From Planctomycetota bacterium (lineage in GTDB: Bacteria; Planctomycetota; PLA2; JAEUHO01), in NCBI GenBank assembly GCA_046350655.1, contig JAXMAB010000004.1, positions 1,005,225 to 1,069,224 on the forward strand: 64,000 nt of DNA. The letters are read 5' to 3'. Made by a program: the position numbers and the translations under genes. Positions 13,601 through 50,152 of the stretch are shown here, in pieces. The notes below the pieces were generated by a model, which did not search any database, was not told where the DNA came from, and saw nothing but the letters and a program-made list of their open reading frames with translations. How positions within the stretch are numbered: the first letter of the stretch is position 1; each line of letters starts with the position of its first letter.

Positions 13601-16600
13601 CTCGAGCGTCACGCCGGAGATGCCGTCCTCGCCGGCGTCCTGGACGCCGTCGCCGTCGACGTCGAACCACACGCGGTCGCCGATGGCGCCCGTGGGGGAG
13701 TCGTAGCCGAAGTTGAGACCGGTGATGTCGTTGCCGCTGACGATGTTCGCGGGCAGCGACGTCGGCGTCGTGGCGTTGAGGCCGGCCGGGACGCTGCCCG
13801 GCTGGACGCGCACCGTGTACGCGCCGTCGGGCAGGTGATCGAACGTGTACGTGCCGTCGGGGCCGGTGGTAGTGGTCGCGACGACGTTGCCGTTGCTGTC
13901 GACGAGCTCGACCACCGCACCCGGGATGCCGGGCTCGCCGGCGTCGGTCGTGCCGTCGCCGTCGGTGTCGTTGAACACGCGGCCGGCGATCGTGCCCGAG
14001 GGCTGGTAGCCGAAGTCCTTCGAGAGGTCGGTCGAGGCGTTGAGCACCGTCGCGGCCTGCTGCGCGCCGCCGAACGTGTTCGTCAGGCCCGCCGGGAGCG
14101 TGGCCGGGACGACGCGCACCGTGTAGGTGTCGTCGGCGAGACCGTCGAACAGGTAGCCGCCCGCCGAGTTCGTGACCTCGGTCGCGACCACCTGACCCGA
14201 GGCGTTGACGAGCTCGAGGCTGACACCCGAGATGCCGTCCTCGCCGGCGTCCTGGACGCCGTCGCCATCGACGTCGAACCACACGCGGTCGCCGATCGCG
14301 CCGGTGGGCGAGTCGTAGCCGAAGTTGAGGCCGGTGACGTCGTTGCCGCCGACGATGTTCGCGGGCAGGGACGAAGGCGTCGTCGCGTTGAGGCCGGCCG
14401 GAACGCTGCCGGGCTGGACGCGCACCGTGTACGCGCCGTCGGGCAGGTGGTCGAACGTGTAGGACCCGTCGGGGCCGGTCGTGGTGGTCGCGACGACGTT
14501 GCCCTTCGCGTCCACCAGTTCGACGATCGCGCCGGGGATGCCGGGCTCGCCGGCGTCGGTCGTGCCGTTGCCGTCGGTGTCGTTGAACACGCGACCGGTG
14601 ATCGTTCCCGAGGGCTGGTAGCCGAAGTCCTTCGAGAGATCGGTCGACGCGCTCGTCACGGTGGCCGACTGCTGCGCACCGCCGAACGTGTTCGTCAGGC
14701 CCGCCGGGAGCGTGGCCGGCACGACGCGCACCACGTAGGTGCCGTCCGCGAGGCCGTCGAAGAGGTAACCGCCCGCCGAGTTCGTGACCTCGGTCGCGAT
14801 GACCTGGCCCGCCGCGTTGACGAGCTCGAGCGTCACGCCGGAGATGCCCGCCTCGCCGGCGTCCTGGACACCGTCTCCGTCGACGTCGAACCACACGCGG
14901 TCGCCGATCGCGCCCGTGGGCGAGTCGTAGCCGAAGTCGAGGCCGGTGACGTCGTTGCCGCCCGAGATCGTCGCGGGGAGCGAGGTCGGCGTCGTCGCGT
15001 TGAGGCCGGCCGGCACGCTGCCCGGCTGGACCCGCACCGTGTAGGCGCCGTCGGGCAGGTGGTCGAACGTGTACGTGCCGTCGGGGCCGGTCGTGGTGGT
15101 CGTGACGACGTTGCCGTTGCTGTCCACCAACTCGACGACCGCGCCGGGGATGCCGGGCTCGCCGACGTCGGTGGTGCCGTCGCCGTCGGTGTCGTTGAAC
15201 ACGCGGCCGGTGATGGTGCCCGAGGGCTGGTAGCCGAAGTCCTTCGAGAGATCGGTCGAGGCGTTGAGCACCGTCGCGGCCTGCTGCGTGCCGCCGAACG
15301 TGTTGGTCAGGCCCGCCGGGAGCGTGGCCGGCACGACGCGCACCGTGTAGGTGCCGTCGGCGAGACCGTCGAACAGGTACCCTCCCGCCGAGTTCGTGAC
15401 CTCGGTCGCGATGACCTGGCCCGCCGCGTTGACGAGCTCGAGGGTGACACCCGAGATGCCGTCCTCGCCGGCGTCCTGGACGCCGTCGCCGTCGACGTCG
15501 AACCACACGCGGTCGCCGACCGCGCCCGTGGGCGAGTCGTAGCCGAAGTTGAGGCCGGTGACGTCGTTGCCGTTTGCAACGACCGCCGGGAGTGAGGTCG
15601 GCGTGGTGGCGTTGAGGCCGGCCGGGACGCTGCCGGGCTGGACGCGCACCGTGTACGCGCCATCGGGCAGGTGATCGAAGGTGTAGGTGCCGTCGGGGCC
15701 GGTCGTGGTGGTCGCGACGTCATTGCCGTTCGCATCGACCAGCTCGACCACCGCGCCCGGGATGCCGGGCTCGCCGGCGTCCGTCGTGCCGTCGCCGTCC
15801 ACGTCGTTGAAGACGCGACCGGTGATCGTGCCCGAGGGCTGGTAGCCGAAGTCCTTCGAGAGATCGGTGGACGCGTTGAGGATCGTCGCCGTCGAAGGCG
15901 AGCCGTCGGGGAACGTGCGCACGACGCCGGCCGGGAGCGTGGCCGGCACGACGCGCACCGTGTAGGTGCCGTCGGCGAGGCCGTCGAAGAGATAGCCGCC
16001 GTCGAAGTCGGTGACGTCGGTCCCGATCACCGCGCCGTTCACGTCGAGCAGTTCCAGCGTCACGCCCGGGATGCCCCGCTCGTTCGCGTCCTGCACGCCG
16101 TCGCCGTCGACGTCGAACCACACGCGGTCGCCGACCGCGCCGCCCGGCCGGCGATAGCCGTAGTCGTTGTCGAGGTCGCTGCCGCCGCCCGTCAACGTGA
16201 CCGGCGTCGTCGTCTGCCCCGGGAACGTCCGCACCGAGCCCGTCGGCAGCGTCGTCTCGTCGATCCGGACGACGTACGCGCCGTCGGGCAGCCCGAAGAA
16301 CCGGTACGTGCCGTCGGGCAGGGTCGTCGTCGTCGCGAGCACGTTCCCGTTCGCGTCGAGGAGGTCGATGCGCACGCCCTCTAGCCCCGGCTCGCCGGCC
16401 GGCGCCACGAGCCCGTTGCCGTCGCCGTCGCGCCACACGAGCCCGCCGAGAACGCCCTCGGGCCGATAGCCGAAGTCCTTCGTCAGGTCTGTCGACGCGT
16501 CGAGCACCGCCGCGGGCACCGTCGCGCCCGCCGGGAACGTCCGCACGAGCCCCGCCGGCACCGTCGCCTCGACGACGCGCACGCCGTACGCGCCGTCCGG

Positions 16601-19600
16601 CAGGCGGTCGAAGAGGTAGCGGCCGTCCGCCACGGTCTGCGTCGTCCGCAGCAGGCCGCCCGCGCCGTCGAGCAGCTCGACCGTCACGCCGACGAGACCC
16701 GGTTCGCCGAACGCGTCCTGCACGCCGTCGCCGTCGACGTCGAGCCACACGCGATCGCCGATCGCGCCCCGCGGGTCGCCCGAGCCACCGGGCCTCGCGT
16801 ACCCGAAGTCACGACCGCTCACCTCGTTCCCGCCCGCCACCGTCGCGGGCCGCGACGTGACCGTGGTCGCGTCGTACCCCGCGGGCGCGGTGCCGGGCTG
16901 GACCCGCACCGTGTACGCGCCGTCGGGGAGGTGCTCGAACGCGTACGTGCCGTCCGCCGCCGTCGTCGTCGTCGCGACGACGTTCCCGCCGCCGTCCACG
17001 AGCTCGACGCCGACGCCGGGCAGGCCGGGCTCGCCGACGTCCGCCGCGCCGTCGCGGTCCGTGTCGTCGAAGACGGTGCCGCGGACCGCGCCCGTCGGAC
17101 GGTAGCCGAAGTCCTTCGTGAGGTCCGTCGCGCCGTTCGTGACGGTGGCGGGCTGCTGCGCGCCGCCGAACGTGTTCTCGAGGCCCGACGGGAGCGTGGC
17201 CGCGACGACGCGCACCGTGTACGCGCCGTCGGGGAGCCCGCCGAAGAGGTACGTGCCGTCGCCCGCGGTCGTCGTCGTGCGGAGCACCGCGCCGCCGGCG
17301 TCGAGCAGCTCGATACCGACGCCGCCGAGGCCGGGCTCGCCCGCGTCCTGCGCGCCGTCGCCGTCCGCGTCGCGCCACACGCGGTCGCCGAGCGCGCCGG
17401 TGAAGCGGTACCCGACGTCGAGCGTCAGGTTCTGCCCGCCGATCGCGACCGCGCCGACGGGCGACGCCGTCGCCGACGTGCGGACGACGGTCTTCGGCAG
17501 CGTGGTCGCGTCCACCACGAGGCGGTACGTGCCCGCGGGCAGGCCGTCGACGAGGTAGAGGCCGTCCGTGCCCGTCGTGCGCCGGCCGAACGGGGCCGAC
17601 GTGAGGTCGTCGACGACGTCCACCACGACGCCCGGGATGCCCGGCTCGTCGGCGTCCTGCTGCGTGTCGCCGTCGAGGTCGAGCCAGATGCGGTCGCCGA
17701 CCGCGGCCGAGCCGCGGTAGCCGAAGTCGACGTTCGTCGTGGCGGCGGCCTCGACGACGGTGATGGGACGCGCGGCCGGCGGCGTCGTCGACGCGAGGCC
17801 CGGCGGCAGGCTCGAGCCCACCACGCGGACGGTCCAGGCCCCGACGGGCACGTCCTCGAAGAGGTACGCGCCGTCGTTGGCGGTGGTGCGGAACGCGCGC
17901 ACGACGCCGTTCGGGTCGACGAGCTCGAGCGACACGTTGCGCAGGCCCGGCTCCTCCGGGTCCTGCACGCCGTCGCCGTCGCGGTCGAGCCACACGCGGC
18001 CCGAGACGTCCTGCGACGGGCGGTAGCCGAAGTCCACGGGCGGCGTCGGCACGCCCGCCGTCACCGTCACGGGCACCGGCTGGCCGGGCGTCGTGCGCGT
18101 GAGCCCGTCGAGGAGCGGGTTGCCCTCGACGACGTTCACGAGGTAGTCGCCCACGGGCACCGACGTGAACTCGTACGTGCCGTCGGCGCGCGTCGTCGTC
18201 GTCGCGACGACGAGGCCGTCGCGCGTGAGGAGGCGGAGCTCGACGCCGCCGATGGGCGGCTCGCCCGCGTCGTGGACGCCGTCGCCGTCGCTGTCGCGGA
18301 ACACGGTCCCCGTCACCGAGCCGGTGGGGCGGTACCCGAAGTCGAGCGTCACGTCGGCGCCGCCCGCGGGGATCGTCGCGTTCTTGACGTCCGTCGGCGT
18401 CGTGCGGAGCGAGCCGGCGGGGGCCGTCGCGTCGAGGACCTTCACGCGGTACGTGCCCGCGTCGAGGCCGGAGAAGAGGTAGCGGCCGTCGGCGACCGTC
18501 TGCTGCGTCGAGAGCAGCACGTCCGTCTCGGACCGCAGCTCGACCGTCACGCCCGGCAGGCCCGGCTCGCCGTCGTCCTGGACGTCGTCGCCGTCGTCGT
18601 CGCGCCAGACGCGGTCGCCGACGCTGCCCGCGGGGCGGTACCCGAAGTCCGCGGTGCCGATCGCGCCGCCGGCCGGCAGCACGAGGTCGAGCGACGCCGG
18701 CGTCGTCGGCCCGTACCCGGCCGGGACGGTGGCCGTGACCACGCGGACCGTGAAGCTCCCCGCGGCCAGGTTGTCGAAGCGGTACGCGCCGTCGGCGTCC
18801 GTCGTCGTCGTGCGGAGGAACTGGCCCGCGCCGTCGAGCAACTCGAGGCCGACGCCCGGCAGGCCCGGCTCGTCGGCGGACTGCTGCCCGTCGCCGTCGC
18901 GGTCGTACCACACGCGGTCGCCGATCGTGCCGATGGGGCAGAAGCCCACGTCGAGGCCGAAGAGATTCTGGCGCGGCGCGAGCGTCCGCAGGATCGGCAG
19001 CGTCGTCGACGTCGTGCGCCCCGCGAGCGCGGGCTGGCCGGGGACCACCGACACGCTCCACGCGCCGGCCGGGACCGGGTCGAACCGCCACGCGCCGAGC
19101 GCGTCCGTCACGGCGAACAGCGGCGCCGCGCCGGGCACGTCGGTCCGCAGCGCCTGCACGCGCACGCCCGCGAGCGGCGGGTCCACGCGCACGTCGTCGT
19201 CGCCGTCGCAGTCGAGGTCCTCGAAGACGCGGCCCGACAGGCTCTGGCCGTCCACCGGCCGCACCTCGAGGTTCGTCCGCAGGAACCACGAGTTGCGGGC
19301 GTCGAGGTTGTGCATGACGACGACCCAGTCGCCCGGCAGGCCGTCGGCCGGGATCGGGATCGCCTCGAAGCCGGTCTCGGTGCCCGTCTCCTGCGAGACG
19401 TTGCCCGAGAGGTCGAACAGGACGACGCGCAGCGTGCCCGCCGGGTCGTACAGCTCGAGCCACGGGCTGCCGTCGACGCTCGGCTCCGTGGACGTCGGCA
19501 GCCGGTAGCCGGAGTTGTCGCGCGCGACGCCGTTCACCGTGTACGGCCGGCCGTCGTCGGGCGGCACGCCGGGCGCCGACGGGCTCACGGTGCCGTTGCG

Positions 19601-20596
19601 CGCGACGCCGCCGGCGTCGTCCACGTCGTCCGCGTCGCCCTCCTCGAGCACCACCCGCGTCAGGAACTGCGCCCAGCTCTCGCCGCGGCGCGGCACCATC
19701 CGCACGCGCACCGAGAACGACCCCGCGTACCGGTTCACGTACGGGTCGCCCGCCGGGTACCGCACCGCCGGCGCCACGTCGCCCTGCAGCGCGAGCGCGC
19801 CGTTCCAGCTCGGCGGCGGCTCGAGCACGTCCGGGTAGTGGTCGCGCGAGACCGAGTACGGGAACTGGGTGCCGTCCTCGCGCGCGAACAGGAGGTTGCG
19901 CGCGTCCACGACGCCGCCGATGAACCCCGCCAGCAGGATCTGGTCGGCGCCCGGGTCCTGGGCGAGCACGCCGTTCGCCGCGACCTTGTAGCCGTTGATG
20001 GGGGCTCGCCCGCCGCCCGTCGGCACCGGCAGCCGGTACGACACGACGAGCCGATACGCGTACTCCTCGGTCTCCGTGACCCGGGCGTTCGGGTGGTGCG
20101 GGGCGTCGACCAGGAACTCCCACCGGCTGTCGATCGCGTTCGCGAACACCTTCGTCACGTCCGCGCTCTGCGCGCCGGGCGCCTCGGACTCGCCGACGGC
20201 GACCACCGTCGCCGGGTGGTCGGGCGAGTTCGTCGTCACGACGTACCGGACCACCGACCCGTCCGGCAGCGGCGCGCCGTCGGGGCCGTTCGAGAGGAGG
20301 TTCTGGTCCCAGAGCCCGGCCGCGTTGCCGTCGAAGATCGCGAGCCGCAGGCGGTCGGTGTTCAGGCTGCAGGTGACGCCGAACTGCGCCGGCTGCGACA
20401 GCGACGAGTTGCCGTCGGCGATCAGGTCGTGGAAGACGCCGCTGTGGCTGTCGCGGTCCGGCAGGCCCTGGAACTCCGCCCCCGCGACGAGTTCGTCGTT
20501 GTCGAACGGCTCGGCGGCCTGGGTCGACAGCGGCAGGAACGCGAGGAGGGCCGGGGCGGCGGCCGCCGCCCATCGGCGGAGCTTCGGGAAGCGCAT
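7685..20596 (-). CDS. giant secreted repeat protein (4,303 aa): signal peptide, ~560-aa N-terminal module, roughly 30 or more SdrD-B/Cna-B-like Ca-binding repeat domains (DxDGDG motifs), Cys-rich C-terminal module and a K/D-rich tail
   Basis: Track ORF 7685..20629. Start chosen at M12 (ATG 20596, with GGAGG 8 nt upstream), giving MRFPKLRRWAAAAAPALLAFLPLSTQAAEP. Repeated units ...AIGDRVWFDVDGDGVQDAGEDGISGVTLELVNAAGQVIATEVTNSAGGYLFDGLADGTYTVRVVPATLPAGLTNTFGG... and ...GTITGRVFNDTDGDGTTDAGEPGIPGAVVELVDSNGNVVATTTTGPDGTYTFDHLPDGAYTVRVQPGSVPAGLNATTP... Codons have almost uniformly G/C third positions. Confidence 0.85.
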   Translation of the reverse strand: MRFPKLRRWAAAAAPALLAFLPLSTQAAEPFDNDELVAGAEFQGLPDRDSHSGVFHDLIADGNSSLSQPAQFGVTCSLNTDRLRLAIFDGNAAGLWDQNLLSNGPDGAPLPDGSVVRYVVTTNSPDHPATVVAVGESEAPGAQSADVTKVFANAIDSRWEFLVDAPHHPNARVTETEEYAYRLVVSYRLPVPTGGGRAPINGYKVAANGVLAQDPGADQILLAGFIGGVVDARNLLFAREDGTQFPYSVSRDHYPDVLEPPPSWNGALALQGDVAPAVRYPAGDPYVNRYAGSFSVRVRMVPRRGESWAQFLTRVVLEEGDADDVDDAGGVARNGTVSPSAPGVPPDDGRPYTVNGVARDNSGYRLPTSTEPSVDGSPWLELYDPAGTLRVVLFDLSGNVSQETGTETGFEAIPIPADGLPGDWVVVMHNLDARNSWFLRTNLEVRPVDGQSLSGRVFEDLDCDGDDDVRVDPPLAGVRVQALRTDVPGAAPLFAVTDALGAWRFDPVPAGAWSVSVVPGQPALAGRTTSTTLPILRTLAPRQNLFGLDVGFCPIGTIGDRVWYDRDGDGQQSADEPGLPGVGLELLDGAGQFLRTTTTDADGAYRFDNLAAGSFTVRVVTATVPAGYGPTTPASLDLVLPAGGAIGTADFGYRPAGSVGDRVWRDDDGDDVQDDGEPGLPGVTVELRSETDVLLSTQQTVADGRYLFSGLDAGTYRVKVLDATAPAGSLRTTPTDVKNATIPAGGADVTLDFGYRPTGSVTGTVFRDSDGDGVHDAGEPPIGGVELRLLTRDGLVVATTTTRADGTYEFTSVPVGDYLVNVVEGNPLLDGLTRTTPGQPVPVTVTAGVPTPPVDFGYRPSQDVSGRVWLDRDGDGVQDPEEPGLRNVSLELVDPNGVVRAFRTTANDGAYLFEDVPVGAWTVRVVGSSLPPGLASTTPPAARPITVVEAAATTNVDFGYRGSAAVGDRIWLDLDGDTQQDADEPGIPGVVVDVVDDLTSAPFGRRTTGTDGLYLVDGLPAGTYRLVVDATTLPKTVVRTSATASPVGAVAIGGQNLTLDVGYRFTGALGDRVWRDADGDGAQDAGEPGLGGVGIELLDAGGAVLRTTTTAGDGTYLFGGLPDGAYTVRVVAATLPSGLENTFGGAQQPATVTNGATDLTKDFGYRPTGAVRGTVFDDTDRDGAADVGEPGLPGVGVELVDGGGNVVATTTTAADGTYAFEHLPDGAYTVRVQPGTAPAGYDATTVTSRPATVAGGNEVSGRDFGYARPGGSGDPRGAIGDRVWLDVDGDGVQDAFGEPGLVGVTVELLDGAGGLLRTTQTVADGRYLFDRLPDGAYGVRVVEATVPAGLVRTFPAGATVPAAVLDASTDLTKDFGYRPEGVLGGLVWRDGDGNGLVAPAGEPGLEGVRIDLLDANGNVLATTTTLPDGTYRFFGLPDGAYVVRIDETTLPTGSVRTFPGQTTTPVTLTGGGSDLDNDYGYRRPGGAVGDRVWFDVDGDGVQDANERGIPGVTLELLDVNGAVIGTDVTDFDGGYLFDGLADGTYTVRVVPATLPAGVVRTFPDGSPSTATILNASTDLSKDFGYQPSGTITGRVFNDVDGDGTTDAGEPGIPGAVVELVDANGNDVATTTTGPDGTYTFDHLPDGAYTVRVQPGSVPAGLNATTPTSLPAVVANGNDVTGLNFGYDSPTGAVGDRVWFDVDGDGVQDAGEDGISGVTLELVNAAGQVIATEVTNSAGGYLFDGLADGTYTVRVVPATLPAGLTNTFGGTQQAATVLNASTDLSKDFGYQPSGTITGRVFNDTDGDGTTDVGEPGIPGAVVELVDSNGNVVTTTTTGPDGTYTFDHLPDGAYTVRVQPGSVPAGLNATTPTSLPATISGGNDVTGLDFGYDSPTGAIGDRVWFDVDGDGVQDAGEAGISGVTLELVNAAGQVIATEVTNSAGGYLFDGLADGTYVVRVVPATLPAGLTNTFGGAQQSATVTSASTDLSKDFGYQPSGTITGRVFNDTDGNGTTDAGEPGIPGAIVELVDAKGNVVATTTTGPDGSYTFDHLPDGAYTVRVQPGSVPAGLNATTPSSLPANIVGGNDVTGLNFGYDSPTGAIGDRVWFDVDGDGVQDAGEDGISGVSLELVNASGQVVATEVTNSAGGYLFDGLADDTYTVRVVPATLPAGLTNTFGGAQQAATVLNASTDLSKDFGYQPSGTIAGRVFNDTDGDGTTDAGEPGIPGAVVELVDSNGNVVATTTTGPDGTYTFDHLPDGAYTVRVQPGSVPAGLNATTPTSLPANIVSGNDITGLNFGYDSPTGAIGDRVWFDVDGDGVQDAGEDGISGVTLELVNASGQVVATEVTNSAGGYLFDGLADGTYTVRVVPATLPAGLTNTFGGAQQSATVTNASTDLSKDFGYQPSGTITGRVFNDTDGDGTTDAGEPGIPGAVVELVDSNGDVVATTTTGPDGTYTFDHLPDGAYTVRVQPGSVPAGLNATTPTSLPATITGGSDVTGLNFGYDSPTGAIGDRVWFDVDGDGVQDAGEDGISGVMLELRNAAGQVIATEVTNSAGGYLFDGLADGTYVVRVVPATLPAGLTNTFGGTQQSATVTNASTDLSKDFGYQPSGTITGRVFNDVDADGTTDAGEPGIPGAIVELVDANGNVVGTTTTGPDGTYTFDHLPDGAYTVRVQPGSVPAGLNATTPTSLPATITNGNDVTGLNFGYDSPTGALGDRVWFDVDGDGVQDAGEDGISGVTLELRNAAGQVIATEVTNSAGGYLFDGLADGTYTVRVVQATLPAGLTNTFGGTQQAATVLNASTDLSRDFGYQPSGTITGRVFNDTDGDGTTDAGEPGIPGAVVELVDSNGNVVATTTTGPDGTYTFDHLPDGAYTVRVQPGSVPAGLNATTPASLPADIVGGSDVTGLNFGYDSPTGALGDRVWFDVDGDGVQDAGEDGISGVTLELRNAAGQVIATEVTNSAGGYLFDGLADGTYVVRVVPATLPAGLTNTFGGTQQSATVTSASTDLSKDFGYQPSGTITGRVFNDIDGDGTTDAGEPGIPGAIVELVDSNGTVVTTTTTGPDGSYTFDHLPDGSYTVRVQPGSVPAGLNATTPTSLPAVVAGGNDVTGLNFGYDSPTGAIGDRVWFDVDGDGVQDAGEDGISGVTLELVNAAGQVIATEVTNSAGGYLFDGLADGTYTVRVVPATLPAGLTNTFGGAQQSATVTNASTDLSKDFGYQPSGTITGRVFNDTDGDGTTDAGEPGIPGTIVELVDANGNVVATRTTGPDGTYTFDHLPDGAYTVRVQPGSVPAGLNATTPTSLPAVVANGNDVTGLNFGYDSPTGAIGDRVWFDVDGDGVQDSGEDGISGVTLELVNAAGQVIATEVTNSAGGYLFDGLADGTYTVRVVPATLPAGLTNTFGGAQQSATVTNASTDLSKDFGYQPSGTITGRVFNDTDGDGTTDAGEPGIPGAVVELVDANGNVVTTTTTGPDGTYTFDHLPDGAYTVRVQPGSVPAGLNATTPTSLPAVITGGSDVTGLNFGFDSPTGAIGDRVWFDVDGDGVQDAGEDGISRVTLELLNAAGQVIATEVTNSAGGYLFDGLADGTYTVRVVPATLPTGLTNTFGGTQQAATVLNASTDLSKDFGYQPSGTITGRVFNDTDGDGTTDAGEPGIPGAVVELVDRNGNVVATTTTGPDGTYTFDHLPDGSYTVRVQPGSVPADYNATTPTSRPATITNGNDVTGLEFGFHTSTPPPPPPPTGAIGDRVWADTDGDGLQDPGEPGLPGVTLELLNAAGQPVASKVTGPDGAYLFDGLANGAYTVRVVAASLPPGLVSTTGGLQQSATVTNASTDRTKDFGFGAPRVALGGRVWLDADGDGLQDPTGEPGLAGVTVELLDAAGRVVGSQLTGPGGSYLFPGLLDGAYRLRVVESTLPTGLTRTFPATATVPAAVTGGSTDLTKDFGYRAAPPTCDPGTDPRVHEACFEASVWLADPHTRDFDVYVRVDRGTRAGDIRDLVCLGYTGAFPGTAVGANGVLRVEGLTVVDGYAKVRVCVTADPGTIDGGFFDGPFRLEVVVNGVGEAAADTFTRASLVPGATFPRNWTPLWCDDVPDFAVASVVPFACWEPPPPPTTCVRDVGWWRAVHRDGACAATRVPWPLDGAESRRLCGRTWRSILDASAKDDAWVALAQAYIAAQLNVAAGNTPSRKVADAIDEAGCLLVQGCRGFCGLAEERAVLLHRTLKAFNRGTNGPAACPDAVPTCPPPPKPDVCPVPGDRGGKDGGDGKDKGKERGNDKKDDRNDKNDRSATPRAPEAGKDRPKGGDRR
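9400..15600. repeat. intragenic near-identical tandem DNA repeats (period alternating about 600/630 bp, about 10 copies; more diverged copies on both sides)
   Basis: The string CCGAAGTTGAGGCCGGTGACGTCG(T/C)TGCCG recurs at about 9421, 10021, 10651, 11251, 11881, 12481, 13081, 13711, 14311 and 15541. Each period encodes two ~100-aa SdrD-B-like domains. Confidence 0.7.
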
Positions 20597-20839
20597 ACAG
20601 ACCTCCTGCGGGGAGAGGACCGGAGGCAACTCCGGTGCCGGGCCCTCATCCGGCCTTCATAACGACGGGGAGGGACGCGCCGGGCGCACCTCAAGTCGCC
20701 ATGGATCAAGGACTTACGTCGGCGCGCAACCGACCCGTTGCCGGTCGATTCCGCGACGTCGAGCGGGCGGGGTGCTGCGGAATTCGGACAAGTCCCCCGG
20801 CGCCGATGTCGCACCGCCGCGACACGGACCGTGCGGCCT

Positions 20840-21155: not shown

Positions 21156-24101
21156 TTACTTCTTGCCGCCCTTGTTGCCCGGCTTGCCCGGAGCGGTGCC
21201 GACGCCGTCGTTCACCGGCGGGTTGCCCGGGGGCTGGGGATCGAGGCCGTTGCCGACGCCGTTGTTGCCCTTCGGCTTGTCGTCGCACTTGTCCTTGGGC
21301 TTCTCGCACTTGGACTTGTCGTCGTCGCACTTGTCCTTGGGCTTCTCGCACTTGGACTTGTCGTCGTCGCAGCGGTCCTTGGGCTTGTCGCACTTGGACT
21401 TGTCGTCGTCGCAACGGTCCTTGGGCTTGTCGCACTTGGACTTGTCGTCGTCGCACTTGTCCTTGGGCTTGTCGCCCTTCGGCTTGTCGTCGCAGCGGTC
21501 CTTCGGCTCGTCGCACTTCGGCTTCGGATCGCACTTCGGCTTCGGGTCGCACTTCGGCGGCGGGGGCGGGCAGCAGGGCACCTTCACGATGCACGCCACC
21601 GGGCCGGCCTTGCCGTCGTTGTAGCCCTTCAGCACCAGGTAGACGATCCGGGCGCGCTCCTCGGCGAGGCCGCAGAGCCCGCCGCAGTTCTGCTCGAGCA
21701 GCGCCGCAGCCTCCTCAAGGGCGGCCGCGACCGTCTTCGGGGTGCAGGCCCCGCCGGCGGCGTTGAGCTTCGCGACGATCCACTGCTGGGCGAGGGCCAC
21801 CCACGCGTCGCACTTGGCGCTGGCCTTGAGGATCGACAGCCACGACTTGCCGCAGAGGACCTTGTCCTCGCCGCCGTCGACCGGCCACGCGATCTTCGTC
21901 GCCTCGCAGGTGCCGTACTTGTTGACCGTCTTCCACCAGGCCAGGCCCTTGACGCAGCCGTCCGTGCACGGCTTGTCCGGCCAGCACTCCCAGGCGAGGT
22001 ACGACTTCAGGAAGAAGTCGGGGACGTCATCGCACCAGAGCGGCTTCCAGTCGGCCGGGAACGTCCCGCCGATCTTGAGCGACTTGCAGGAGAACTCGCC
22101 GCAGGCCGCCTCGCCGACGCAGTTGACGACGACCGTCAGCTTCATCGTGCCGTCGAAGTAGCCCATCGGGAACCACGCCGGGTCGGCCGTGGCGCACACG
22201 AGGACCTTGGCGTAGCCGTCGACGACCTTGATGTCCTTGACCTTCAGGACGCCGTTGCGGCCGGTCTGCTCGCCGGGGAAGGCCCCGTCGTAGCCGAAGC
22301 AGGCGAGGTCCACCATCGGCGGGTCGCACTCGCAGCCCTTGTCGAGCCGGACGTAGACGTCGAAGGACGTCGTGGTCGGGTCGGCGAGCCACACGCTCGA
22401 CTCGAAGCACACCTCGTGGAGGCGGCCCGTCTCGCCGCAGTCGCAGGTCTTCTCGCAGTAGCCGATGTCGGCGTCCTTGAGGTTGACCGACGGGACGACC
22501 GTCTTCGACAGCGGCTGGACGATCGCCGACGTCATGTTCGGCACGTCCGAGTCGACCGAGATGTTGTACGTCCCGGCCGGGATCGGGTTGACCGAGTAGA
22601 AGCCGTTCGCGTCCGTCACGCGGAAGATCGGCGCCGCGGGGGCGTCGGTGCGCTGGATGCGGACCGTCAGGCCGGAGAGGGCCGGCTCGACGTCGGCCTC
22701 GTCGTCACCGTCGCAATTCAGGTCGCGGTAGACGCGGCCCTCGAGCGACTGCGTGAGCGGGTTGAACTCGACGTTCGCGCGGAGGAACCACGAGTTGCGC
22801 GCGTCGAGGTTGTGCATCCGCAGCGTCCAGAGGCCCGGGATGCCGTCGAGCGGCACCGGGATCTTCTCGAACGCGGCGCCGGTGTTGTCCTCCTGGGCCA
22901 CGTTGCCCGAGAGGTCGAGCAGCGTCACGCGGACCACGCCGTTCGGGTCCACGAGCTCGAGCCACGGGCTGCCCGCGTCGCTCGGCTGGGCCGCGAACGG
23001 GAGGCGGTAGCCGGAGTTGTCGTGCGCGATGCCGCGCTGGTCGACGTAGGCGCGGCCGTCGTCCGGCGGGATGCCGGCGTTGCTCGGGCTGGGCATGCCC
23101 TCGGGGCTGATGCCCGAGAGGTCGTCCACGTCGTCGGCGTCACCCTCCTCGAGGATGAGGTTCTCGACGAAGTTCACCCAGCTCTGGCCGGGGCTCGGGA
23201 CGAGGCGGATGCCGAGCTCGAAGTCGCCCTTGTACTTGTTCACGAACGGGTCGGGGCTCGGGAACCGGACGGCCGGGAGCGCGGCGGCCGGGCCGTTCAG
23301 GATCGAGTTCAGGTTCGCGCTGGGCTCGAGCACGTCCGGGTAGTGGTCGCGCGAGACCGAGTACTCGTCCCCGTTCACCGGCGAGCCGGGGAACTTGAAG
23401 AGCATGTTGCGCGAGTCGACGACGCCGCCGATGAACCCGCCGGTCAGCAGCTGGCCGACCTGGACGGGGATCAGGCCGAAGGGCGCGTTGATCGCGACCT
23501 TGTAGCCGTTGATCGGGGCGATGTTGCTGCCCGACGGCGTCGGCTGGCGGTACTTCACCAGCAGGCGGTAGACGTGGCGGCCGTCCGGGAGCAGCGCGTT
23601 CGGGTGGTGCGGGCCGTCGTAGAGGAACTGCCAGCGGCCGTCCACGGCGTACGTGAAGATCGCCGCGCCCGGACGGGGCGCCGCGCTCTCCGAGTCGGCG
23701 ATGGCGACCACCGTCTCCGGGGCCGTCGGCGACGCGGTGACGAGGTCGTACTCGACGACCGAGCCGTCCGGCACCGGGTTGCCGTTCGCGTCGTTGTCGA
23801 TCTTGTTCTGGTCCCAGAGGCCGCCCGCGTTGCCGTCGAAGATGGCGACGCGGAGCGAGGTGCTCTCGGCCGGGGCCGCGATCCCGAAGACGTTCGGGCC
23901 GGTCACCGAGCTCGAGCCGACCGCGATGAGGTCCAGGAACACGCCGCTGTGCGTGTCCTTGTCCGGGAGGGCGAGGAACTCCGAGCCGGCGACCAGCTCG
24001 TCGTTGTCGAAAGGCTCGGCGGCGAAGGCCGGCGCCGTCAAGAAGCACGCCGCGGCCGAGAGGCCGAGCAGCGCGCGCGAGAACCACGTCATGCGACCCA
24101 T
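21156..24101 (-). CDS. 981-aa secreted paralog of the giant protein (shared N-terminal module and Cys-rich C-terminal module; no SdrD-B array; K/D/C-rich tandem-repeat tail)
   Basis: Signal peptide MGRMTWFSRALLGLSAAACFLTAPAFAAEPFDNDELVAG. Aligns residue-by-residue with the giant protein N-terminus (AAEPFDNDELVAG.., PINGYKV.., SVSRDHYPDVLEP.., LEEGDADDVDD.., NLDARNSWFLR..) and with its C-terminal module (HEVCFESSVWLADP.., WCDDVPDF.., DAWVALAQ.., CGGLCGLAEERA..). Confidence 0.85.
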   Translation of the reverse strand: MGRMTWFSRALLGLSAAACFLTAPAFAAEPFDNDELVAGSEFLALPDKDTHSGVFLDLIAVGSSSVTGPNVFGIAAPAESTSLRVAIFDGNAGGLWDQNKIDNDANGNPVPDGSVVEYDLVTASPTAPETVVAIADSESAAPRPGAAIFTYAVDGRWQFLYDGPHHPNALLPDGRHVYRLLVKYRQPTPSGSNIAPINGYKVAINAPFGLIPVQVGQLLTGGFIGGVVDSRNMLFKFPGSPVNGDEYSVSRDHYPDVLEPSANLNSILNGPAAALPAVRFPSPDPFVNKYKGDFELGIRLVPSPGQSWVNFVENLILEEGDADDVDDLSGISPEGMPSPSNAGIPPDDGRAYVDQRGIAHDNSGYRLPFAAQPSDAGSPWLELVDPNGVVRVTLLDLSGNVAQEDNTGAAFEKIPVPLDGIPGLWTLRMHNLDARNSWFLRANVEFNPLTQSLEGRVYRDLNCDGDDEADVEPALSGLTVRIQRTDAPAAPIFRVTDANGFYSVNPIPAGTYNISVDSDVPNMTSAIVQPLSKTVVPSVNLKDADIGYCEKTCDCGETGRLHEVCFESSVWLADPTTTSFDVYVRLDKGCECDPPMVDLACFGYDGAFPGEQTGRNGVLKVKDIKVVDGYAKVLVCATADPAWFPMGYFDGTMKLTVVVNCVGEAACGEFSCKSLKIGGTFPADWKPLWCDDVPDFFLKSYLAWECWPDKPCTDGCVKGLAWWKTVNKYGTCEATKIAWPVDGGEDKVLCGKSWLSILKASAKCDAWVALAQQWIVAKLNAAGGACTPKTVAAALEEAAALLEQNCGGLCGLAEERARIVYLVLKGYNDGKAGPVACIVKVPCCPPPPPKCDPKPKCDPKPKCDEPKDRCDDKPKGDKPKDKCDDDKSKCDKPKDRCDDDKSKCDKPKDRCDDDKSKCEKPKDKCDDDKSKCEKPKDKCDDKPKGNNGVGNGLDPQPPGNPPVNDGVGTAPGKPGNKGGKK

Positions 24102-40381: not shown

Positions 40382-41419
40382 GTGCTGCGGCCCGTGGCCC
40401 GACGCCGGCGCGGCCCCTTCGACGTCGCGATCCTCGCGGTCGCGGTCGCGCTCGCGCTGGTGCCCGCCGGGGCCTTCGTCGCGCGACTCGCGCGGGGCAC
40501 GCCGGCGACGACGCAGCCGTTCCTGTTCCCTGCGGGCGAGCGGGCGGCGTTCGAGGCGCTGCGGGACCGCGCGGCGAAGGGGCTCCTGTCGCTGCAGCAG
40601 CCCGGCGGCGGGTTCCTGCCGCGCGTCGACGCGGTGGACGTGGATCCGTTGGACCGCGCCGAGGCGACGGCGATGGGCCTCGCGGGCCTCGCGGTCGCGT
40701 CGCGGCTCGGGTCGCGGGTGGCCGGGCTCGAGGACGGGCTCGCGCGCGCGCGGCGGACGCTGACGCAGCTGCAGTCGCAGTCGGGGCAGTTCGGCGTGAG
40801 TCGCCGGCCGCGGCGCGGGGTGGGGGTGAGCGCGGTCGCGTGCGGCGTGATCGGGCTGTGCGTCGTCGGCGATCCGGGGGACGTCACGTACCTCGAAGCG
40901 GCGGGCCGGGCCCTGGTCGCGCAGGCGCAGATGGGGACGCTGCCGAGCGGGTGGGTGCAGGCGGTCGCCGCGCGCGGCCTGGCGCAGCTGGTCGAGAGCG
41001 GGTACGGGGCGTGGCTCGGCGACGACCCGGTGTCCGTGCTGCCGACGCAGCGGATCGAGCTGGCTCGGCGGGTGACGGACAGCCACGTCGCGCAGGCGCT
41101 CGTGCTGCAGATCGAGACGGCGCTCGGGGCGCCGCCCGTGGACCTGCCGAAGGCCGTGCTGCGGAGGATCCTCGACGATCCGCCGACGTGGACGGGGCTC
41201 GAGAGCGACATGGGGTCGTGGGTCCAGCAGGCGTGGCTCGCGGCGCGGCTCCCGGAGGGGCCCGCGTGGTTCGCGAACGCGCTGTCGGAGCTCGCGAAGG
41301 CACCGGGGGAGACCGGGGTGGTCGAGGGCGACTACTACGGGTATCCGGTCGCGCGGACGGCGGGGCTCCTGCTGGTCCTGTGGGAGGGCGGCGGGCGGCG
41401 GCGGATCGGAGCGCCGTAA
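40382..41419 (+). CDS. hypothetical membrane protein with a prenyltransferase/squalene-cyclase-type repeat (QxxxGGF)
   Basis: 345 aa (GTG start). N-terminal TM segment FDVAILAVAVALALVPAGAFVA. Motif LLSLQQPGGGFLP. Otherwise not recognised. Confidence 0.5.
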   Translation: MLRPVARRRRGPFDVAILAVAVALALVPAGAFVARLARGTPATTQPFLFPAGERAAFEALRDRAAKGLLSLQQPGGGFLPRVDAVDVDPLDRAEATAMGLAGLAVASRLGSRVAGLEDGLARARRTLTQLQSQSGQFGVSRRPRRGVGVSAVACGVIGLCVVGDPGDVTYLEAAGRALVAQAQMGTLPSGWVQAVAARGLAQLVESGYGAWLGDDPVSVLPTQRIELARRVTDSHVAQALVLQIETALGAPPVDLPKAVLRRILDDPPTWTGLESDMGSWVQQAWLAARLPEGPAWFANALSELAKAPGETGVVEGDYYGYPVARTAGLLLVLWEGGGRRRIGAP

Positions 41420-41610
41420 GTCCGCCGGGCGACGGGGCTTACAGGCGTCGAACCGCGGGCAGGCTCGTCCGTTTACTCCGGGGAAGCCGGACTCTAGAAT
41501 GCGCCGCTCGGACGGTCCGAAGGCGCATCCTCGGCCGGCCCCCATGTTCTCGGCGACCGGCCTTCCCGGGCGACTTGCCCGGGGGGGAACCGAACGGAGA
41601 CTCTCGACCG

Positions 41611-43221
41611 ATGGCTCGCACCGAACGGATCGAACACCAGCCGCAGTTCCTGGAGCAGGGCGGCGACTTCAACGACCAGCTCTACAAGGCGCTGCGCGCC
41701 AGCCCGTGGTGGATGATCTCCATCGCGTTCCACGTCCTCCTGGGCGTGATCTCGAGCCTGATGACGTCGGACGCCCCGCCGCCGCAGAAGAACCTCCAGA
41801 TGGTGGCGAGCATGAACGCGGCCGAGCCGCCGGCCGTCGAGGAGCCGCCGCCGACGCCGGAGGAGACCGAGCAGATCCACCAGTCGGACGTCGTGGCGAA
41901 GGAGCCGACGGTCAAGGACGCCGAGCTCAGCGACCACAACGAGACCGACAACGACCTCCCGACCGAGGAGTCGCTCGGCGAGAGCGGCATCTCCGACGCC
42001 CCGTTCGAGGGCCCGGCGAACAACGGCCTCATCGGCATCGGCGGCAGCGCCGGCGGCGCCTTCAAGGGCCGCGGCGGTCACCGCAACCTGCGCGCGGGCG
42101 GCGGCGGCAAGAAGGCCGACGACGCGGTCGAGGACGCGCTGAAGTGGCTCGCCGCGCACCAGTCGGCCGACGGCGGCTGGGAGTGCGAGGGCTTCCGCAA
42201 GTGGTGCGACGGCAAGACGATCTCGGGCGAGGGCCCGGACGGCGCCGGCAAGGCCCAGTACGACGTGGGCGTGACGGGCATGGCCCTGCTCGCGTTCCTC
42301 GGCGCGGGCTACACGAACCGCTCGGAGGGCCCGTTCGGCAAGGTGGTCGGCAACGGCCTCAAGTACCTGCGCAACGTGCAGGACGCCGAGGGCTGCTTCG
42401 GCAGCCGTTCGTCCGGTCACTTCGTCTACAACCACGCGATCGCCGCGCTCGCCATGGTCGAGGCGTTCGGCATGACGGGTTCGACGAACTTCAAGAACCC
42501 CGCCCAGAAGGCGCTCGACTTCATCGCGATCTCGCGCAACCCGTACTTCGCCTGGCGCTACGGCATCAAGCCGGGCGACAACGACACCTCGGTGACGGGC
42601 TGGATGATGATGGCGCTCAAGAGCGCGAAGCTCATCAACCAGGCCGACGTCAAGGCCGGCAAGCCCGTCTCGCTGCAGTACGACGAGGAGGCCTTCGAGG
42701 GCATCAAGGCCTGGATCGAGAAGATGACGGACCCGGACTACGGCCGCGTCGGCTACCAGCAGCGCGGCACGGGCCCGGCGCGTCCGACCGAGCTCGTCGA
42801 CAAGTTCCCCGCCGACAAGTCGGAGTCGATGACCGGCGTCGGCATGCTGGCCCGCATCTTCCTCGGTGAGAACCCGAAGACGAGCGACCCGATCAAGAAG
42901 GGCGCCGAGCTCTGCTCGAAGGTCGCCCCGAAGTGGGACCCGAACGACGGCTCGATCGACATGTACTACTGGTACTACGCGACCCTCGCGATGTTCCAGG
43001 TCGGCGGCCCGACGTGGGACGCGTGGCAGAAGGCCATGAAGACGGCCATCATCGACACGCAGCGGAAGGACACCGACTTCTGCATGTACAAGGGTTCGTG
43101 GGACCCGATCGACCCGTGGGGCCCGGACGGCGGCCGCGTCTACTCGACGGCGTGCCTCGCGCTCTGCCTCGAGGTCTGGTACCGCTACGACAAGGTGTTC
43201 GGCGCGGCGGGCGAGAAGTAG
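41611..43221 (+). CDS. membrane-anchored alpha/alpha-toroid protein with prenyltransferase / squalene-hopene-cyclase-type repeats
   Basis: 536 aa from ATG 41611 (M258 of track ORF 40840..43221, with GGAGA upstream). TM segment WWMISIAFHVLLGVISSLM, Pro/Glu-rich linker, then KWLAAHQSADGGWECEG, GMALLAFLGAGYT, LRNVQDAEGCFGS, LDFIAISRNPYFAWRYG: the QxxDGGW/terpenoid-cyclase repeat pattern. Confidence 0.75.
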   Translation: MARTERIEHQPQFLEQGGDFNDQLYKALRASPWWMISIAFHVLLGVISSLMTSDAPPPQKNLQMVASMNAAEPPAVEEPPPTPEETEQIHQSDVVAKEPTVKDAELSDHNETDNDLPTEESLGESGISDAPFEGPANNGLIGIGGSAGGAFKGRGGHRNLRAGGGGKKADDAVEDALKWLAAHQSADGGWECEGFRKWCDGKTISGEGPDGAGKAQYDVGVTGMALLAFLGAGYTNRSEGPFGKVVGNGLKYLRNVQDAEGCFGSRSSGHFVYNHAIAALAMVEAFGMTGSTNFKNPAQKALDFIAISRNPYFAWRYGIKPGDNDTSVTGWMMMALKSAKLINQADVKAGKPVSLQYDEEAFEGIKAWIEKMTDPDYGRVGYQQRGTGPARPTELVDKFPADKSESMTGVGMLARIFLGENPKTSDPIKKGAELCSKVAPKWDPNDGSIDMYYWYYATLAMFQVGGPTWDAWQKAMKTAIIDTQRKDTDFCMYKGSWDPIDPWGPDGGRVYSTACLALCLEVWYRYDKVFGAAGEK

Positions 43222-43255
43222 GCGTCCTCCCGCAACGAACGTCCTGAGTCTCTCC

Positions 43256-43294
43256 GCGCGCCCGCCGGCACCCGCCGGCGGGCGCGCGCATTTC
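43256..43294 (+). terminator. intrinsic terminator after the 41611..43221 gene
   Basis: 13-bp perfect stem GCGCGCCCGCCGG cacccg CCGGCGGGCGCGC followed by cATTTCT. Confidence 0.55.
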
Positions 43295-43321
43295 TACGCG
43301 GGCTGCGCTGCGCCTGCGGGC

Positions 43322-43540
43322 CCGCGGGACGGCGGAACAACGGGGTCGTAGCCCTCCGTTTCGCGGTCGGCGTCCGGGCCTCGCGTCCCCGGGGGATCGG
43401 CCGCGAAGTTGGAACAACGGGGTCGTAGCCCTTTGTTCCACGTCGACGTCGGGCGACGCCGAAACAACGGGGTCGTAGCCCTTCGTTTCGCTGTCGACCG
43501 GGGGGAAGTTGGAACAACGGGGTCGTAGCCCCTTGTTCCA
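43322..43540. repeat. tandem array of four ~30-nt hairpin repeats (GGAACAACGGGGTCGTAGCCC(T/C)TTGTTCCA and GRAACAACGGGGTCGTAGCCCTYCGTTTCG variants alternating), spacers 50/20/20 nt, in a convergent 3-prime intergenic region
   Basis: Repeats at 43331, 43411, 43461 and 43511. Each folds as GGAACAA-C-GGGG tcgtag CCC(C)-TTGTTCC. The first spacer contains a REP-like half site CCGGGCCTCGCGTCCCC. Confidence 0.6.
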
Positions 43541-43542
43541 GA

Positions 43543-44835
43543 TCAGGGGTCCAGGCGCGTGCGGTCGCGGGGGTAGAGGCACGCCTCGCGGACGTTCGCC
43601 AGGCCCGCGAGCTGGGCGGTGAGCCGCTCGAGGCCGATCGCGAGCCCGCCGTGGGGCGGCATGCCGACGTCGAACATGCGGAGGTGGCCCGCGAAGGCCG
43701 CCGGGTCGATGCCGCGGGAGCGGATCGAGGCCTCGAGGTCCGAGCGGAGGTGACGGCGCTTGCCGCCCGTCGTGATCTCGAGCCCCCGATAGAGGAGGTC
43801 GAACGACTCGGCGGCCCCCGCGGTGCCGCGCGGATGCGTGTAGAACGGCCGCGCGGCGATCGGGAACCCGACCACGAAGACCGCCGCGACGCCGTGCTGC
43901 CGCTCGGCGAGCGCGCAGAGCTGCCGCTCGCCCTCGGGGTCGAGGTCGTCCACGAGGTCGGCGCGGCCCGCGTCGCGCCGGAGGCGCCCGAGGCACTCGC
44001 CGAACTCCCAGACCGGCGCGCGCTCGATCGTCGGCGGGGGCGCGACCCCCAGCGGCTTCCAGAGCGCGGCGTGCTCCGCCGCGAGGCCCGCGAACATCTC
44101 GCAGAGCACCTCGCGCTCCAGCTCGATCACGTCCTCGGCGGCGTCCACGAACGCCATCTCGAGGTCGAGGGAGAGGTACTCGGTGAGGTGCCGCGACGTC
44201 GCGTGCGGCTCCGCCCGGTAGACGTGCCCGGTCTCGAACACGCGCTCGAGGCCCGCGGTCCCGTGCTCCTTGAAGAACTGCGGGCTCTGCGCCAGGTAGG
44301 CCACGCGGTCGAAGTAGGTGACCGGGAAGAGGTTGGCGCCGCCCTCCGTGCCCCCGGACACGAGCTTCGACGTCACGATCTCGGTGAACCGCCGCCGACG
44401 GAGCGCGGCCCGGAAGCCCTCGAGGAGGGCCGCCTGCAGGCGGAACACCGCGCCGACGCGCTCGTTGCGCAGCGAGAGGGGGCGGTGCGCGAGGACCGTC
44501 TCCGCGCCCACGGCCGACAGGTCGGCGCTCGCGTGGAACGGGAGGTCCTGCGCCGCCCGGGCGAGCACCTTGGCCTCGAGGATGTCCACCTCGACGCCCC
44601 CGTAGCGGGAGCGCGGGTCGGGGCGCACCTTGCCCCGGAACTCGACCACGTCGTCGAGGGAGAGGGCGAGCGGCGCCAGGGCCGGCGTGGCCGCGACGCA
44701 CTGCATCTGCCCGGAGGCGTCCTGCAGCACCACGAAGGTCGTGTGCGACAGCACGCGGAGCCGGTGGACCCAGCCCGCGAGGACGACCTCGGTGCCGCTA
44801 CGCTGCGCAAGCTCCGCGAGGAAGGTCTTGCGCAC
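43543..44835 (-). CDS. class IIb aminoacyl-tRNA synthetase, archaeal-type (short) AspRS or AsnRS
   Basis: 430 aa, GTG start. N-terminal OB anticodon-binding domain. Class II motif 2 YRAEPHATSRHLTEYLSLDLE, motif 3 GGLAIGLERL. The length fits archaeal-type AspRS better than AsnRS, but sequence alone does not decide. Confidence 0.8.
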   Translation of the reverse strand: MRKTFLAELAQRSGTEVVLAGWVHRLRVLSHTTFVVLQDASGQMQCVAATPALAPLALSLDDVVEFRGKVRPDPRSRYGGVEVDILEAKVLARAAQDLPFHASADLSAVGAETVLAHRPLSLRNERVGAVFRLQAALLEGFRAALRRRRFTEIVTSKLVSGGTEGGANLFPVTYFDRVAYLAQSPQFFKEHGTAGLERVFETGHVYRAEPHATSRHLTEYLSLDLEMAFVDAAEDVIELEREVLCEMFAGLAAEHAALWKPLGVAPPPTIERAPVWEFGECLGRLRRDAGRADLVDDLDPEGERQLCALAERQHGVAAVFVVGFPIAARPFYTHPRGTAGAAESFDLLYRGLEITTGGKRRHLRSDLEASIRSRGIDPAAFAGHLRMFDVGMPPHGGLAIGLERLTAQLAGLANVREACLYPRDRTRLDP

Positions 44836-44911
44836 GATCTGGCCTGCCGACGTAGGACGGGACGCGGATCATGGGGGGGACCTCCTCGCGGAGCGCCGGA
44901 CCTGCGTCCGG

Positions 44912-45187
44912 TTACTTCGCCTTCTTGACCGCCGAGGCGACCGCCTTGGCGAGCTTGCTCTTGTGGTTCGACGCCGTGTTCCGGTGGATCACGTGGCGCT
45001 TCGCGGCCTTGTCGAGCTTCTTGAACGTGTGGGGGAGGAGGGCCTCCGCCTCCTTCGCCTTGCCGGCCGCGAGGAGGGCGCGGAGGTCCTTCTCGGCGGC
45101 GCGCATCGCGCCCTTCGTGGCGAGGTTGGCGACGCGACGGCGCTCGTTCTGGCGGACGCGCTTCTTGGATGAACGGCTGTGGGGCAT
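44912..45187 (-). CDS. rpsT: 30S ribosomal protein S20
   Basis: 91 aa: MPHSRSSKKRVRQNERRRVANLATKGAMRAA...KRHVIHRNTASNHKSKLAK. A CCGGAC ctgc GTCCGG hairpin follows the stop. Confidence 0.9.
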   Translation of the reverse strand: MPHSRSSKKRVRQNERRRVANLATKGAMRAAEKDLRALLAAGKAKEAEALLPHTFKKLDKAAKRHVIHRNTASNHKSKLAKAVASAVKKAK

Positions 45188-45288
45188 CGGGAGAGTCTTT
45201 CCAGGTCAGGTTCGTTCGGGACGCTTGGGAACGGTCAGGGACAAGGGACGGACGACGGGGGCGGCCGGGGCGGGGGATGACCGGGAGG

Positions 45289-50076: not shown

Positions 50077-50152
50077 GGGCAGGTAGCTCAGCTGGTAGAG
50101 CGTCGGACTGAAAATCCGAAGGTCACCGGTTCAATCCCGGTCCTGCCCACCA
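50077..50152 (+). tRNA. tRNA-Phe (anticodon GAA)
   Basis: GGGCAGGTAGCTCAGCTGGTAGAGCGTCGGACTGAAAATCCGAAGGTCACCGGTTCAATCCCGGTCCTGCCCACCA: 7-bp acceptor stem, anticodon loop cT-GAA-aa, T-arm GGTTCAATCC, encoded CCA. Confidence 0.9.

Follow-up and report, generated by a model that had tools for sequence, protein, structure and literature searches.

The REP, BIME, and REPIN elements of Proteobacteria are short extragenic palindromes that carry a GTAG motif and occur at many intergenic loci, singly or in clusters. They vary in copy number between close relatives, prefer the 3′ ends of genes, and are targets of insertion sequences (IS), of which REP-specific ones have been catalogued (PMC1525189). 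A survey of the GTAG-tagged REP superfamily, which includes some Planctomycetes, describes an unpaired GTAG foot at the stem, a TAG that can serve as the stop codon of a gene, and head-to-tail arrangement as rare (PMC3733652). Class 3 TnpA-Y1 “REPtron-like” systems are found mainly in Planctomycetes and Acidobacteria, with flanking atypical hairpins that lack a GTAG foot and number up to hundreds per genome (PMC6006769).

Here, we describe an array of palindromes in a 64-kb stretch of planctomycete DNA (the window). The element shares with REP, BIME, and REPIN sequences the properties given for them above. It differs from them in having a stem of ~19 bp rather than 6 to 13 bp, GTAG in the apical loop rather than at the foot, units placed head to tail with overlapping arms rather than in alternating orientation, and a polar CCGGGGGG run. 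With the class 3 TnpA-Y1 systems it shares the host phylum; the class 3 hairpins are described as weaker in structure and as having a 5′ CnGA foot, which the GYCGAC flank found here fits in some copies only. The MIRU-VNTR loci of Mycobacterium tuberculosis also consist of direct tandem units (40 to 100 bp) at scattered intergenic sites, with strain-variable copy number and stop codons that overlap the repeat, but they have no sequence relationship to the element. MIRUs are not known to be palindromic, and they contain short reading frames that are coupled.

We read the array, with good though incomplete confidence, as one cluster of an extragenic palindromic repeat that is interspersed and clade specific, in the manner of REP, BIME, and REPIN elements. 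The family is a previously undescribed one of a known, REP/BIME-like kind and appears to be restricted to a narrow group of Planctomycetia. Its core sequence is absent from the text-form supplementary files of two REP/HUH surveys and from the searchable literature, where the only matches were unrelated human primers.

Four copies in a convergent gap

The earlier note, made by eye from the letters, had placed four 30-nt repeats at 43331, 43411, 43461, and 43511 in the gap between two convergent genes, one of them encoding an aminoacyl-tRNA synthetase. All four repeats lie at those positions, and the convergent gap is as described: a plus-strand gene ends at 43221 with a hairpin of its own at 43255–43288, and the minus-strand synthetase gene is that for aspartyl-tRNA synthetase (AspRS). 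The features of the region are as follows.

40840–43221, plus strand: upstream convergent gene, 793-aa protein with a weak SQHop_cyclase_C domain match (Pfam)
43255–43295, plus strand: intrinsic terminator-like hairpin of that gene, with 15-bp perfect arms and a short T-rich tail
43322–43366, plus strand: copy 1 (A type), extended palindrome around the core GGGGTCGTAGCCC (43342–43354); fold of −23.8 kcal/mol, 61.6 bits with covariance model R1
43361–43410, plus strand: 50-nt “spacer,” hairpin-forming by fold, containing CCCCGGGGG (43387–43395) and with the 3′ end AAGTT
43410–43440, plus strand: copy 2 (B type), TGGAACAAC-GGG-GTCGTAG-CCC-TTTGTTCCA; fold of −16.7 kcal/mol, z = −3.6
43454–43496, plus strand: copy 3 (A type), extended palindrome GACGCCGAAAC...GTTTCGCTGTC with the GTCGAC junction motif; folds, 70.8 bits with covariance model R1
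43498–43505, plus strand: G-run CCGGGGGG after copy 3, a motif that recurs downstream of the element elsewhere
43510–43540, plus strand: copy 4 (B type); fold of −20.1 kcal/mol, z = −5.4
43543–44835, minus strand: non-discriminating, class II aspartyl-tRNA synthetase (aspS), 430 aa, with the Pfam domains tRNA-synt_2 and tRNA_anti-codon

The 19-nt core AACAACGGGGTCGTAGCCC is present as four exact direct copies, all on the plus strand between 43331 and 43540, and nowhere else in the window; the shuffle expectation is 0.03 copies, and none of 100 shuffles contained four or more. TRF described the array as 2.8 copies of period 50 (score, 176), and a repeat search returned a four-member family with spacings of 77, 50, and 50. 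Covariance model R1 had no significant match in the window outside 43318–43555, leaving a single locus.

The A copies (1 and 3) have a long outer stem, CGRAAC/GTTTCG, that reaches into the “spacers,” whereas the B copies (2 and 4) have a compact stem. The 11- to 12-bp stem first proposed for every repeat is therefore right for the B copies and wrong for the A copies, whose outer stem extends past the 30-mer, so that the 30-nt boundaries are too narrow for copies 1 and 3. The first 50-nt “spacer” is a separate hairpin-forming stretch that, like copy 1 itself, is conserved at the orthologous locus in two relatives (L028 and L022); given that conservation, it is not a CRISPR-type spacer.

On the plus-strand side, the 793-aa gene has an orthologue at the same position in L028, where its hairpin (43255–43295) is also kept, with a longer T-tail; this hairpin is an ordinary intrinsic terminator outside the repeat family. 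On the other side, 2 nt separate the last repeat from the AspRS stop codon, and AspRS homologues carry the name aspartate--tRNA(Asn) ligase. The array lies in the 3′ flank of aspS in minus orientation, so that the aspS mRNA would carry the loop CUACGAC. The remaining genes of the window include the housekeeping genes rpsT, def, ribF, prfB-like, purH, rnc, mfd, typA, and dut, a ferritin-like (Dps-type) gene, and genes for large surface-repeat proteins. Pfam scans found no cas, transposase, HUH-Y1, or Y1-transposase gene among the window's 24 predicted genes, which bears out the initial remark that cas genes are missing. A giant 4,314-aa open reading frame (7685–20629, minus strand) has ~33 SdrD_B repeats together with CarboxypepD_reg and SpaA repeats and probably encodes a surface adhesin-like protein; the SdrD_B match of a 981-aa gene at 21156–24101 is subthreshold (27.1 bits against a 29.7-bit cutoff). 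The sole tRNA gene is tRNA-Phe (GAA), at 50077–50152 on the plus strand.

The palindromic unit and its dispersal

The earlier note proposed a search for the repeat beyond the window. Run with the 19-mer core, it placed the element at ~12 other intergenic loci, with 1 to 4 or more copies per locus. Because all related loci were retrieved by exact 19-mer match, the apparent invariance of the core is partly an ascertainment effect. Among reference genomes, the core matched a single Planctomycetia MAG (JAEUHO01), on four contigs, plus one actinobacterial sequence by evident chance, and the scan of metagenomes returned 16 further stretches, which reduce to ~10 distinct loci after removal of duplicates and of two chance matches in coding sequence. 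Within the MAG, the element is extragenic and interspersed, as REPs are, at no fewer than four distinct loci: L001, L002/L003 (which hold opposite ends of a single array), L004, and L028, the last of which is a variant array that also lies downstream of aspS. Core matches in Subtercola (L005), in the coding sequence of L012 and L015, and in the viral contigs L029 and L030 have no palindrome and were rejected as chance.

The neighbors of the elements are unrelated to one another, including genes for dnaE2, selA, a lysR-type regulator, dapA, a rhodanese, a GNAT acetyltransferase, a PAP2 phosphatase, and a SnoaL-like protein. Nearly all copies start 0 to 20 nt past a stop codon; an exception, L008, lies between divergent gene starts. 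At three loci the element itself supplies the stop codon and so encodes the last few residues of the gene: the TAG of the loop ends two genuine genes (the GNAT acetyltransferase gene of L003, at 6551–6553, and the PAP2 phosphatase gene of L016, at 30–28), and dapA of L013 stops on a TGA in the 5′ arm (~10019–10021). Relative to the adjacent upstream gene, about 10 elements are in plus orientation (GTCGTAG in the sense strand) and 2 in minus orientation, a bias that is merely suggestive because several of the loci are convergent. All copies inside an array share one loop orientation. Downstream of selA in L010, a homopolymeric run of ~30 C separates two elements (~2500–2535).

We defined the unit from an alignment of 22 copies from the window and related loci, in register i+j=62. 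It is a palindrome of 45 to 55 bp, with arms of up to 19 bp and an asymmetric 7-nt center, GTCGTAG; the consensus is GYCGAC-N3-CG-RAACAACGGG-GTCGTAG-CCCKTTGTYY-CG-N3-GTCGRC, and the pattern CAAMGGGGTCGWRGCCC can be used to search for it as an alternative to covariance model R1. An imperfect stem-loop palindrome is also the form of REPs, though these usually measure 20 to 40 bp. In the 19-pair helix, 77% of cells are paired, compared with 30 to 51% when the partners are slid by 1 to 3 columns; 11 of the pairs have changes on both sides, and none of 500 shuffles reached the observed covariation score. From this pairing, it follows that the 20-nt “spacers” are largely the outer arms (GYCGAC-N3-CG ... 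CG-N3-GTCGRC). The spacer lengths first given (50, 20, and 20 nt) are correct, but the term is not, since the 20-nt ones are conserved parts of the 45- to 55-bp palindrome.

Neighboring units of an array share the GTCGAC palindrome or abut via TGGAACAA/TTGTTCCA, and the period is 33, 41, or 50 nt depending on the locus, which such overlap would explain. The only polarity built into the element is its 7-nt center together with a frequent downstream CCGGGGGG: a CCGGGGG(G) run follows within 90 nt in 12 of 24 nonredundant copies, compared with a mirrored C-run in 3 of 24 and ~0.03 expected by chance. The run lies 13 to 74 nt downstream of the element (at 43389–43395 and 43498–43505 in the window, where the background is 20 such runs per 64 kb), and its polarity agrees with loop orientation. 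In L011 (13360–13450) and L013 (10020–10110), one arm of the palindrome has expanded into tandem subrepeats of 13 to 15 nt, as in six copies of TAGCCCGTTGTTCC, four of CGCCCGTTGTGTCAT, and, in a 5′ arm, two of GAAACAACGGGGT; these expansions look like slippage on hairpin arms.

The unpaired GTAG/CGTC foot of REPs is absent, GTAG sitting in the apical 7-nt center; only the arrays with a 33-nt period (L016, L020, and L026) can be reread as GTAG plus a 12-bp stem and a 2-nt loop, and single copies cannot. BIME units, which are separated by defined linker motifs, alternate in orientation; the arrays here are head to tail. The comparison with BIME and REP elements made at the outset holds for scattered palindromes of variable copy number and fails for orientation, since the copies are direct. 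An integron attC site was rejected, since the element lacks a GTTRRRY core, lies beside housekeeping genes, and forms cassette-free arrays. An inside-out parS, prompted by the resemblance of the arms GTGAAACA...TGTTTCAC to parS half-sites in swapped order, was rejected as well because these half-sites do not adjoin.

Turnover among relatives and an IS target site

The orthologous intergenic region was recovered from relatives through close AspRS homologues. The copy-number comparison that had been suggested for this region revealed variation in repeat number downstream of aspS, listed here as read from aspS where an order is given.

Window: 4 copies, B-A-B-hairpin-A
L028 (the JAEUHO01 MAG; AspRS clustered at 90% identity with P0001, whose identity to the window is 99%): 3 copies, B-hairpin-A-A
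L022 (AspRS identity, 99%): 1 degenerate A copy and the remnant of half a B copy
L026 (97%): 2 B-like copies
L027 (92%): 2 or more copies, oriented the opposite way
L032 (78%; rpsT-aspS synteny as in the window): no element within the 56 nt of flank up to the contig end
L031 (71%; different synteny): no element

The A-B-A-B alternation noticed at first sight is real in the window but breaks down in a relative, whose orthologous array has the order B-A-A. The loops also differ: CTTCGAC, CTCCGAC, and CTACGAC occur in L028, and CTCCGAC occurs in L022. At the 3′ end of dnaE2, L001 has two minus copies and the orthologous L007 has two plus copies, with the G-run inverted too. Several of the relatives' contigs end within the array, as expected of a multicopy repeat. 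When near-identical strains differ like this in how many copies they carry, in orientation, and in loop sequence, neither a conserved RNA gene nor a tuned regulatory site fits the pattern, which is typical of REP/BIME-type elements.

The element is also the target of an insertion sequence. A 1,462-bp IS, encoding a transposase with DDE_Tnp_1 and Nterm_IS4 domains, interrupts the palindrome at the identical site, its exact center, in L002 (142–1603) and L020 (407–1868). Both insertions are flanked by a 13-bp duplication, GGGGTCGTAGCCC, centered on the palindrome axis. The IS copies share 93% identity, are found in different genomic contexts, and have opposite orientations relative to the loop; the two insertions are independent, and the IS apparently has specificity for the repeat. 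Its ends are AATGCCRGTGACTTA, unlike the element, which is a target rather than a pair of IS ends. IS1397, ISPpu9, ISPpu10, and other REP-targeting IS likewise use one fixed position in their repeat in independent events. The present IS differs from these in belonging to the IS4 family, in its 13-bp duplication centered on the palindrome, and in inserting in either orientation.

Competing explanations

Several observations bear on whether the element acts as DNA or as RNA. Hairpins on both strands are about equally stable (−14 to −24 kcal/mol). Among the mismatches of the 19-pair helix, 19 cells are G-U, tolerated if the plus strand is the RNA, and 31 are A-C, tolerated only on the other strand; neither strand is preferred as RNA. 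The terminator scan of 42800–45200 gave no terminator-like site, and no T-run or U-tract follows any copy at any locus. A permissive E-value scan of 42800–44000 against Rfam returned subthreshold matches only, the best overlapping one scoring 15.3 bits with a microRNA model whose gathering score is 87. Taken together, both-strand folding, the mismatch counts, the missing T-runs, and the noise-level Rfam result point to a DNA-level palindrome, with transcript hairpins as a by-product.

On the reading of a REP-comparable repeat, arrays would gain and lose whole units by duplication or deletion. The four copies of the window could have arisen when a composite unit of ~100 nt, B-(C-run)-A in aspS direction, was added to an older B-hairpin-A. 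Spread and homogenization may be due to a trans-acting activity that recognizes the conserved center and inner stem, our best guess being an enzyme of the single-strand HUH/Y1 type, and on transcripts the element would be a stable 3′ stem-loop only incidentally. No RAYT or HUH-Y1 gene was found, either by Pfam among the window's 24 genes or by a crude HUH...Y motif scan of six frames of 294 kb, and we can thus only infer the mode of spread; RAYTs are single copy, so that their absence from 294 kb is weak evidence. That absence, the apical position of GTAG, the head-to-tail arrays, which are rare for REPs, and the single locus in the 64 kb of the window nevertheless count against a REP-like reading.

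A further proposal is that the element is the substrate of an undescribed Planctomycetia mobilization or maintenance system that reads GTCGTAG, the GGG/CCC inner stem, and the G-run instead of a GTAG foot. The element would be inserted preferentially at gene 3′ ends, replacing the last codons and the stop, and the use of the same gene ends in opposite orientations by sister lineages would reflect site-directed insertion. We rate this proposal as unlikely. Class 3 HUH-Y1 proteins, which are themselves poorly understood, would be its candidate enzymes and are an attractive candidate partner of the element; because no class 3 TnpA-Y1 gene was found in the 294 kb (crude HUH...Y motif scan), we offer this link as a lead only.

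On a par with that proposal, and likewise doubtful, is a selected transcript-end element: a reusable terminator module that stops or insulates convergent transcription or that protects the mRNAs of aspS and its neighbor from 3′ exonucleases. The placement 0 to 20 nt past stop codons at almost all loci favors it, as do the stability of the hairpins on both strands and the fact that aspS has no other terminator-like structure ahead of the neighbor's hairpin. REPs of Escherichia coli stabilize upstream mRNA and, within ~15 nt of a stop codon, lower translation or interfere with termination-proximal ribosomes; given this behavior, the array might plausibly also affect aspS expression secondarily, as a stem-loop at the 3′ end of the mRNA. 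The association with stop codons and the possible orientation bias could reflect a selected RNA-level role. A G+C-rich hairpin followed by a U-tract, the mark of an intrinsic terminator, is nevertheless seen at none of the copies, the terminator scan was empty, and the conserved hairpin and T-tail of the neighboring gene indicate that ordinary intrinsic terminators exist in the lineage. L008, between divergent gene starts, and the mismatch types without strand preference also argue against the idea. A dedicated bidirectional terminator or insulator, as the earlier note suggested, finds no support as the main nature of the array, given copy numbers of 1 to 4 and flipped orientation among relatives (AspRS identity of 92 to 99%), the drift of loop bases, the missing U-tracts, the lack of strand preference, and the absence of an Rfam match.

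Less probable still is a minimal MITE, in which two terminal inverted repeats of some IS (ends matching GCCGACRCCGGAACAACGGGG) stand nearly back to back and are moved in trans by its DDE transposase. Inverted arms of 19 to 20 bp around a very short center, scattered copies, and variable orientation at the same locus would suit such an element. However, no target site duplication is visible around single copies, and no IS in the sequence examined has ends that match; the one IS that turned up has AATGCCRGTGACTTA ends and uses the element as its target. Tandem head-to-tail arrays with overlapping arms and the one-arm subrepeat expansions of L011 and L013 are also atypical of MITEs.

A small structured RNA gene, which the earlier note offered as an option, is highly improbable, whether as a protein sponge with repeated hairpins or as a mimic of a tRNA anticodon arm. 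Four similar hairpins do carry an identical 7-nt loop, and the array region folds better than its shuffles (z = −4.0 on the plus strand and −2.7 on the minus strand). But there is no Rfam match, a scan of the array region gave no promoter-like site, copy number and orientation vary, and single elements turn up at numerous unrelated loci and within the terminal parts of coding regions. The mimic was rejected as a candidate: CUACGAC resembles the loop of tRNA-Arg(ACG) and GUCGUAG that of tRNA-Thr(CGU), but orthologous copies differ in their loop bases (CTTCGAC and CTCCGAC in L028; CTCCGAC in L022), and orientation relative to transcription is mixed.

A degenerate CRISPR remnant, suggested by palindromic repeats of ~30 nt at regular spacing and already discounted in the earlier note, can be dismissed, since in place of unique spacers of ~26 to 72 nt with cas genes we find 20-nt “spacers” that stay conserved from one unit to the next and form, by mutual pairing, the outer arms of the palindrome, arrays of 1 to 4 units directly behind stop codons at many loci, and no cas gene among the 24 predicted in the window.

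Reading the array as a cluster of a REP-comparable repeat removes both the CRISPR-like false lead and the speculative small-RNA locus. Interspersed palindromic repeats have barely been characterized in this phylum, and a new family is documented here in Planctomycetia. In practical terms, the repeat breaks short-read assemblies of these genomes and provides markers of variable copy number for strain typing; it also marks the sequence-specific insertion site of an IS4-family element. If a cognate enzyme is found, the REP/RAYT picture would be extended to elements that are recognized at the loop and not at the foot.
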